64,000 nt of DNA, taken from assembly GCA_038893995.1 (NCBI GenBank), contig JAWAQK010000005.1:1-64000 (forward strand). The letters run 5' to 3'. Positions 21,567-46,848 of the stretch are shown here, piece by piece. The notes under the pieces are model-generated. The model had not been told where the DNA came from, searched no databases, and saw nothing but the letters and a program-made list of their open reading frames with translations. How positions within the stretch are numbered: the first letter of the stretch is position 1; each line of letters begins with the position of its first letter. Both the position numbers and the translations under genes were made by a program. This DNA is from Candidatus Thorarchaeota archaeon (GTDB lineage: Archaea > Asgardarchaeota > Thorarchaeia > Thorarchaeales > Thorarchaeaceae).

Positions 21567-21785
21567 CAGTCAGTCATTGCGTCTGATTACGCACAGTCGA
21601 TACAGTGGGCGCTGATGGTTCAAGAGAGCCTCTTCGTAGCGTATCCCACCTGGACTCATGGAGCCTTGTACTGGTGAGTTTCGATCGTTCTGGGTTTCCG
21701 CGGGGGAAAACCAGCACATTGCACTGGTCCGACCTCACGGAGCATTCCTATTGCCTCCCAGATACACGAGAATGAGTCAATGTGG

Positions 21786-21920
21786 TGGGCCCGGCCGGAT
21801 TTGAACCGGCGACCTCCGCCTGTCAGCGCCCACCGCGAAAGTACCGTGGACCTATCAGAGCGGCGCAATAATTGACCTGCCCGTATCTTTGCACGGGCCT
21901 CCAGTCTATGCAACGAGCCC
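21786..21920 (-). tRNA. tRNA-Ile(GAT) with two introns (D-loop 21872-21900; 37/38 21822-21852), CCA encoded
   Basis: GGGCTCG/CGGGCCC acceptor, GCCGG-TTCAAAT-CCGGC; removing both inserts gives CCGCT-CTGATAA-GGCGG. Confidence 0.85.
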
Positions 21921-45926: not shown

Positions 45927-46094
45927 ATTGATTTCTAACCCACCATGTTAGATAAGCATTTCGACTATTGTCGATGTGTGGTATTTCATTGTCCGTCCAG
46001 AGAGATCTCATCCTGGATGGCTGATACATAAGGATTCATCAGACTGCTGCAATCGACTCTGGCAAGACATCACGTGGGAGAGAAAAGGAATTGG

Positions 46095-46264
46095 TAGCGG
46101 GTGGTCGAGTTTCAGCCAGCTGAACTTGTCAGGCTTGCCTTTGAACGACCGATCTCGGGGTTTCCCAAGCGGAGCTCAGTTGCATCCGCAGTTATGAGCC
46201 CCGCGGGATAGATTGCCAGCAGCGTGGATCAGATCCACACGACTCCTGGCTTCCCCAACCCGCT
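46095..46264 (-). tRNA. Initiator tRNA-Met(CAT) with three introns (46213-46244, 46162-46192, 46109-46139), CCA encoded
   Basis: AGCGGGT/ACCCGCT acceptor with A1-U72; GGGA/TCCC D-stem; CGGGG-CTCATAA-CCCCG; GGTCG-TTCAAAT-CGACC after removal of three BHB-flanked inserts. Confidence 0.92.
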
Positions 46265-46359
46265 GACTATCTTTCAGCTCGGGATGGGATAAAAGGATTT
46301 TCGTAAGAAGTTTCAGCGCATATGACCCGTGCCGTGAGATTAGCATCTCTTCTCTGACG

Positions 46360-46848
46360 TCACAAGGCCTTTCCTTGAGCTTGGCCGACAACACTTGAAG
46401 GGAGTGCTCTCACGATGCTTTCCAGCAGGGACGCAAAGGCAACCGAGGCTGTGGCTACCTCTCTGCTGATACTGCCGCTGATATCATCATTTAGATTGTC
46501 AACCAGGACCTGAACCATCTGCTCAATACTCACCAATCCCCTCAACCAGCAGTAAGCAATTATCGCCTCGTAAGTGTCGGCCGCCTTTCCGACGTCCGTT
46601 CGCTTTCCAATACTCTCGTAGACACAACTCGAGCGAATTGCTCGCGCAAGAATGATATCCCGCACCCTCTCTCCATGCAACCGACCGAGAACCAGTGACT
46701 TCGCCACCGAGTAACACAGGTTCACAATGCAGTCGCCGACCTGGGCCAGTCCAGTGTCATTAGTGATTTCTCTGAGAGTCTCATGACGAGTCAGATCGTA
46801 CAACATGCGAACCGCACCAGTCCATGATGGATCGGAGTATAGTGTCAT
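46360..46848 (-). CDS. Archaeal mini-RNase III-like protein
   Basis: LAQVGD.IVNL.YS and AD.YEA..AY.W; downstream of rpoL. Confidence 0.8.
   Translation of the reverse strand: MTLYSDPSWTGAVRMLYDLTRHETLREITNDTGLAQVGDCIVNLCYSVAKSLVLGRLHGERVRDIILARAIRSSCVYESIGKRTDVGKAADTYEAIIAYCWLRGLVSIEQMVQVLVDNLNDDISGSISREVATASVAFASLLESIVRALPSSVVGQAQGKAL

Follow-up and report, generated by a model that had tools for sequence, protein, structure and literature searches.

On the minus strand of this Thorarchaeote contig lies what is very probably a functional and apparently single-copy initiator tRNA-Met (iMet) gene, one that is divided into four exons by three short introns and whose transcription and splicing are predicted. 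The gene is located in the window, by which we mean the whole 64,000-nucleotide stretch of DNA that was analysed, and its parts and flanking signals are arranged as follows.

46289..46303, minus strand: putative archaeal promoter, with BRE-like CGAAAA, TCC and TATA-like TTTTAT, the last spanning -30 to -25 relative to the mature 5' end
46092..46264, minus strand: complete 173-nt gene for initiator tRNA-Met(CAU), with four exons, three introns and an encoded CCA
46245..46264, minus strand: exon 1, tRNA positions 1-19, comprising the 5' halves of the acceptor stem and D-stem and the D-loop to G19
46213..46244, minus strand: intron 1, a D-loop insert of 32 nt following G19, with a relaxed BHB
46193..46212, minus strand: exon 2, positions 20-37, from the remainder of the D-loop through the 3' half of the D-stem to the 5' half of the anticodon stem and loop CUCAUA
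46162..46192, minus strand: intron 2, an insert of 31 nt at 37/38, the canonical site
46140..46161, minus strand: exon 3, positions 38-59, from A38 and the 3' half of the anticodon stem through the variable loop to the 5' half of the T-stem and T-loop UUCAAA
46109..46139, minus strand: intron 3, a T-loop insert of 31 nt at 59/60, with a strict hBHBh' motif
46092..46108, minus strand: exon 4, positions 60-76, from U60 through the 3' halves of the T-stem and acceptor stem to A73 and CCA
46079..46090, minus strand: T-rich tract directly after the CCA, putative transcription stop

When position 46264 is numbered 1, the exons fall at 1-20, 53-72, 104-125 and 157-173 and the inserts at 21-52, 73-103 and 126-156. 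The 173-nt unit starts with AGCGGGT and ends with ACCCGCT-A-CCA, and exon 1 is an exact 20-nt match to the spliced product that is the same as the 5' ends of the orthologs. A sequence-only reading made before this analysis had given the gene the range 46095-46264. Its start and its exons agree with ours, but its end does not, as 46095 is the discriminator A73 and the encoded CCA (46094-46092) carries the gene on to 46092.

Identity and conservation of the spliced product

Excision of the three introns leaves a 76-nt tRNA plus the encoded CCA (79 nt), for which ARAGORN returns tRNA-Met(cat) with a complete cloverleaf of four arms. Specifically, the spliced product has A1-U72, an anticodon stem CGGGG/CCCCG in which GGG/CCC makes up three G-C pairs at 29-31/39-41, the CAU anticodon within a 7-nt loop (CUCAUAA), a T-loop UUCAAAU and the discriminator A73. 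In archaeal and eukaryotic initiators, A1-U72 and three consecutive G-C pairs at 29-31/39-41 are identity elements. Judged by its sequence features, the locus at 46264-46092 is an initiator-type tRNA-Met gene whose use in initiation is predicted, and the 76-nt iMet cloverleaf with A1-U72 and a GGG/CCC stem that the sequence-only reading had proposed is the one that ARAGORN recognises.

The motif GGGCTCATAA occurs a single time in the 2.33-Mb assembly (82 contigs, 91% complete), and short-word BLAST of the spliced product against this 91%-complete assembly finds the four exons in order at 46264-46092 only. The sequence-only reading had named two results that would speak against it, an intronless iMet elsewhere in the genome combined with a lack of spliced reads, and a spliced product that does not score as a tRNA. 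No further initiator copy, intronless or otherwise, was found in the 91%-complete assembly, and the spliced product scored as tRNA-Met(cat). A second CAU tRNA was detected at C2:109164-109278 (plus strand), which we assign to the elongator Met or Ile2 type because it has G1-C72 and an anticodon stem GCAGG/CCTGT. Between its anticodon stem and T-arm, this second tRNA gene carries an insert of ~38 nt, which ARAGORN misplaces as a 19-nt anticodon-loop intron.

Orthologs of the gene were obtained by searching 40 related genomes with the locus. Once their inserts are removed, 19 of the 20 family genes give a 79-nt product; the other one (L025, 80 nt after splicing) was left out of the pair count. 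Among the 19 orthologs, which amount to 14 distinct sequences, 399 of 399 stem cells are paired over the 21 cloverleaf pairs, and double compensatory changes are seen in five of these 21 pairs. Such compensatory evolution of the exons in the family genomes indicates purifying selection on the spliced product.

These observations bear on the alternative that survives best, namely that the locus is a decaying or silent pseudogene and that the working iMet gene lies in the ~9% of the genome outside the assembly. The 91% completeness of the assembly and its division into 82 contigs leave room for such a gene, and expression of the locus is predicted from sequence alone. However, the spliced product keeps all 21 stem pairs and each of the three BHB helices is perfectly paired, a promoter-like element is conserved, and every family genome inspected has an iMet locus of the same exon structure whose exons change by compensation. 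We consider a pseudogene very unlikely and favour a functional iMet gene at this locus.

Regarding the flanking signals, an element of the form GAAAA-N3-TTWWAW lies 25-40 nt upstream of the window gene and recurs at a similar distance in most of the family orthologs; it is probably a BRE/TATA promoter. Pyrimidine- or T-rich tracts are found 3' of the gene in nearly all orthologs, and the T-rich tract after the CCA is probably a terminator. Upstream of the tRNA gene lie genes for a methyltransferase, an Rrp4-like protein, RpoL and a protein with PF11469, and downstream of it lies a gene for an HTH protein. The next gene upstream on the same strand (window 46360-46848, minus) codes for the 162-aa PF11469 ('Ribonuclease III', archaeal type) protein and is the last of an operon with the methyltransferase, the Rrp4-like protein and RpoL. 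The Cdc6 that adjoins the locus is 75-85% identical to the Cdc6 of many Thorarchaeota MAGs, in agreement with the Asgard host that the sequence-only reading had presumed, and among 80 loci around Cdc6 homologs the tRNA gene does not adjoin cdc6 in other Thorarchaeota.

Splice motifs and processing enzymes

The exon-intron boundaries were set by ortholog alignment under a strict gap model, independently of any splice motif. The reference for this alignment was the uninterrupted 79-nt ortholog of genome G017 (locus L021), which scores 59.2 bits with Rfam RF00005. The spliced product is colinear with this intronless gene and identical to it at 71 of 79 positions; the eight differences consist of two D-loop bases and six bases that form three compensatory pairs. 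The alignment permits a single boundary for the D-loop insert and likewise a single one for the T-loop insert, while the anticodon-loop insert has four sequence-equivalent cut positions, from which the BHB register picks 37/38.

An archaeal BHB (bulge-helix-bulge) consists of an outer helix, a 4-bp central helix and a second outer helix, with a 3-nt bulge on either side of the central helix, and EndA cuts after the second nucleotide of the bulge. At the boundaries set by alignment, the central helix is paired at 4/4 positions and in exact BHB register for all three introns. The motifs are given below, with the cut in each bulge marked by a hyphen.

Intron 1, after G19: central helix GCCA/TGGC; bulges GG-A and AA-T; helix h' present, helix h absent at the 3' bulge
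Intron 2, 37/38: central helix CTCA/TGGG with one G-U; bulges TA-A and AA-A; helix h is the 5-bp anticodon stem, helix h' is offset by 2 nt
Intron 3, 59/60: central helix TTCA/TGAA, all Watson-Crick; bulges AA-G and AC-T; helix h is the 5-bp T-stem, helix h' has 2 bp

In intron 1 the inner helix h' opens with G-C followed by U-G and then runs on into an 8-bp hairpin, and the outer helix h is absent on the 3' side, where A14 stands opposite C, giving a relaxed motif of the HBh' type with a loop at the 3' site. The inner hairpin of intron 2 is GCGGA/TCCGC, with two unpaired nucleotides beside the 5' bulge, and helix h' of intron 3 starts with G-C and C-G. These predicted pairings make the motif strict for the T-loop intron, near-canonical for the one at 37/38 and relaxed for the one in the D-loop. 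The lengths of the inserts (32, 31 and 31 nt), their sites (after G19, 37/38 and 59/60) and their junction helices had all been put forward from the sequence alone, and both the sequence and the ortholog alignment return the same values.

A second alternative accepts the gene as real and holds that one or more splice sites are off by 1-2 nucleotides, or that an insert is removed otherwise than by EndA at a BHB. The four sequence-equivalent cut positions of the 37/38 intron would allow this, as would the relaxed D-loop motif with no outer helix at its 3' bulge. Nevertheless, the 79-nt orthologs allow one boundary each for the D-loop and T-loop inserts, the BHB register and the alignment give the same sites for three of three introns, and any of the equivalent cuts at 37/38 leads to the identical mature sequence. 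As for removal by other means, 31-32 nt is too short for the features of a group I or group II intron. Shifted sites or another route of removal strike us as highly improbable, even somewhat more so than a pseudogene, and we retain EndA cleavage at the three sites listed above as the predicted route.

When the introns were shuffled (100,000 trials), an in-register 4-bp helix appeared in 0.023, 0.024 and 0.034 of trials for introns 1, 2 and 3, respectively, and all three helices appeared together in 4e-5; the background of in-register helices for 31-32-nt spans across the window is 0.020. The notion that an intergenic stretch merely holds tRNA-like pieces by chance, to which the silence of standard scanners at the locus lends some colour, is ruled out by four ordered exons totalling 79 nt that are 90% identical to a bona fide intronless tRNA, by the orthologous loci and conserved pairing across the family, and by this shuffle frequency. 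The minimum-free-energy fold of the whole precursor recovers GCCAG/CTGGC and the T-stem pairings and leaves out the A/U-rich TTCA/TGAA helix. BHB helices are protein-stabilised, and this fold was counted neither for nor against the motifs. Finally, a blastn-short search of each intron against the whole genome gave only chance matches of 12-14 nt, and thus no sign of intron copying between genes.

Two EndA paralogs are encoded in the genome, one of 192 aa on C15 and one of 215 aa on C39. The best match of the C15 protein is Aeropyrum pernix EndA alpha (3P1Z_B, E 7.6e-44), with an alignment that is ungapped through the Crenarchaea-specific loop (CSL/L1), that keeps the CSL residues K44 and R46 (VEKPR against IRKPR) and that includes the catalytic Tyr, His and Lys motifs. 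The C39 paralog is more distant and is without the catalytic His, and we read it as a putative structural beta subunit. RtcB is encoded as well (598 bits). Hirata and colleagues (PMC3241643) found that the CSL, and K44 above all, confers cleavage of D-loop and relaxed motifs, and an (alpha-beta)2 plus L1-loop type of EndA, which the two paralogs here match, has been reported for Asgard archaea (PMC5829648). The sequence-only reading had stated that an endonuclease of broad specificity is needed and had suggested typing the EndA of the genome. Such an enzyme would indeed be called for because the D-loop intron lacks an outer helix at its 3' site, and the typing yields a catalytic alpha subunit with the CSL/L1 loop together with the second paralog that has no catalytic His. 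From this homology we assume that the host EndA cuts relaxed and non-canonical motifs, and predicted cleavage at the D-loop and 37/38 sites depends on that assumption.

Taken together, processing would begin with transcription from the BRE/TATA promoter ~25-40 nt upstream, giving a pre-tRNA of ~173 nt in which each intron and its flanking exon would form a BHB with a 4-bp helix between two 3-nt bulges. EndA, composed of the catalytic alpha subunit with CSL/L1 and the putative structural beta subunit, would cut after nucleotide 2 of each bulge, in whatever order the introns would be removed, and RtcB would join the exons into the 76-nt tRNA with encoded CCA. As predicted here the mechanism is the standard archaeal EndA/RtcB pathway and not a new one.

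Detection by tRNA finders and published disrupted tRNA genes

ARAGORN makes no call at the unspliced iMet locus, whether run with or without its intron option, and Rfam RF00005 (Infernal) does not detect the locus at its gathering score, nor at E <= 10 on a 551-nt stretch. At the gathering threshold Rfam also detects none of seven intron-bearing orthologs, including three that have a single intron, and it does detect the intronless one. The iMet gene is essential, yet it is overlooked by both of the tRNA finders that were run, which bears out the suspicion of the sequence-only reading that standard annotation may miss it. Two ORFs of 72-73 aa overlap the tRNA gene, one at 45976-46197 (plus) and one at 46176-46394 (minus). 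Neither has a Pfam match and both are probably spurious; gene callers could label the two as hypothetical proteins and so may mask the tRNA.

Across the whole genome (G000, 82 contigs) standard tools find 27-28 tRNA genes, and they detect none for Asp, Asn, His, Ile, Lys or Phe in this 91%-complete genome. Many more multi-intron tRNA genes must be hidden in it, and tRNA-based inference of completeness or of codon usage will be wrong for this genome and for its Thorarchaeota relatives if homology is not used to look for multi-intron genes. At window positions 21783-21920 (minus) ARAGORN calls a tRNA-Ser(act) with a 47-nt intron, a mis-modelled gene that the Rfam tRNA model does not report. The acceptor stem of this locus is GGGCTCG/CGGGCCC, its T-arm is GCCGG-TTCAAAT-CCGGC and its CCA is encoded; when read by eye, the sequence resembles a tRNA-Ile(GAU) that is interrupted twice, in the D-loop and at 37/38.

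Fragmented multi-intron tRNA genes are already known in Asgard archaea from publications of 2018, 2024 and 2026. A connection between the Asgard type of EndA and disrupted tRNA genes was drawn by Kaneta et al. (2018, PMC5829648), whose survey included one Thorarchaeota genome. For three complete Asgard genomes, Valentin-Alvarado et al. (2024, PMC11291895) reported that 92-95% of the tRNA genes contain introns and that more than half of the intron-bearing genes have several of them, often in non-canonical positions. A 2026 preprint (10.64898/2026.10.13.758758) describes up to five introns per Asgard tRNA gene and D-arm inserts that annotators missed. These three publications supersede the statement in the sequence-only reading that triple-intron tRNAs are rare and have been reported chiefly from Thermoproteales.

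The iMet gene of the window resembles the published Asgard cases in belonging to the same superphylum, in having several short (~20-35 nt) introns of the protein-spliced kind at both canonical and non-canonical sites with a BHB at the boundaries, in its EndA with the L1/CSL insert, and in a D-arm insert that annotators overlook. It differs from them in that the host is a Thorarchaeote and in that its three introns are fewer than the published maximum of five. The words 'initiator' and 'iMet' are absent from the main text of both PMC11291895 and the 2026 preprint, and 'Thorarchae' is absent from the main text of the preprint. The locus adds Thorarchaeia, and specifically a single-copy iMet gene, to the published picture of intron-rich Asgard tRNAs.

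Multi-intron tRNA genes also occur in Thermoproteales (Pyrobaculum, Thermofilum), as cited in PMC3218864 and PMC4090602. Shared with the gene described here are BHB introns, two or three to a gene, in the D-loop, anticodon loop and T-loop, and dependence on a heterotetrameric EndA with the Crenarchaea-specific loop, which for the Thorarchaeote is predicted from its genes. In contrast to the Thermoproteales cases, the host here is an Asgard and not a TACK archaeon, the introns are without sequence relation, and the intron content of one orthologous gene ranges from 0 to 3 within a single family.

Disruption of a single-copy iMet gene has precedents as well, as the gene is split in Nanoarchaeum equitans and permuted in Thermofilum pendens, where a junction at 59/60 is accompanied by a 37/38 intron (PMC3218864). 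The Thorarchaeote gene shares with these that it is an essential single-copy gene predicted to work only after BHB processing, that its CCA is encoded and that the 59/60 and 37/38 sites are used. Unlike them, it is colinear, neither split nor permuted, and it has an additional intron in the D-loop.

Intron variation among orthologs

A survey of iMet genes in relatives, which the sequence-only reading had recommended, shows that the family orthologs recovered from the 40 genomes searched carry 0, 1, 2 or 3 inserts at the same three sites, specifically in the D-loop after position 17, 18 or 19, at 37/38, and in the T-loop after positions 56-59. A three-intron iMet is also present in genomes G020 and G022. 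Introns 1 and 2 of G005 and G020 align to those of the window with 76-78% identity over 125 nt, and we therefore regard them as homologous to the window introns. One orthologous gene with 0-3 introns at three recurrent sites in one family provides a clean comparative series, which could serve to date the gain and loss of introns and to probe which substrates Asgard EndA accepts.

Within two pairs of genomes of the same genus, G005/G020 (loci L002/L003) and G007/G022 (loci L013/L006), the members differ by the T-loop intron of iMet. These sequence differences within two genera point to recent gain or loss. Given that both genus pairs (g6 and g8) differ by a T-loop intron and that the family spans 0-3 introns, one could envisage ongoing intron turnover in the Thorarchaeia iMet gene, with three fixed hot spots (D-loop, 37/38 and T-loop) that undergo repeated short-term gain and loss, and with interruptions that are perhaps favoured for breaking the attachment site of integrating elements. 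We hold this scenario as doubtful and offer it tentatively. If true, iMet would be a natural series for how BHB introns arrive, a matter left open by the 2026 census.

As to the attachment-site idea, four separate matches to the iMet 3' exon lie within ~4 kb in the related genome G018 (G018:C149:1548-5660); such repeated copies of the tRNA 3' tail are what elements integrated at the iMet tRNA would be expected to leave. No spare 3' tails were found downstream of the iMet gene in this window. At locus L002 (G005:C2) the first 12 nt of the iMet gene (AGCGGGTTGGGG) are duplicated ~59 nt upstream of the real gene, which may be a remnant of rearrangement or integration. Finally, in a 1.4-Mb single-contig genome of the same phylum (L030, G026:C1:700180-703197) the iMet gene spans 229 nt and contains at least four inserts, one of which apparently lies within the 3' acceptor strand.
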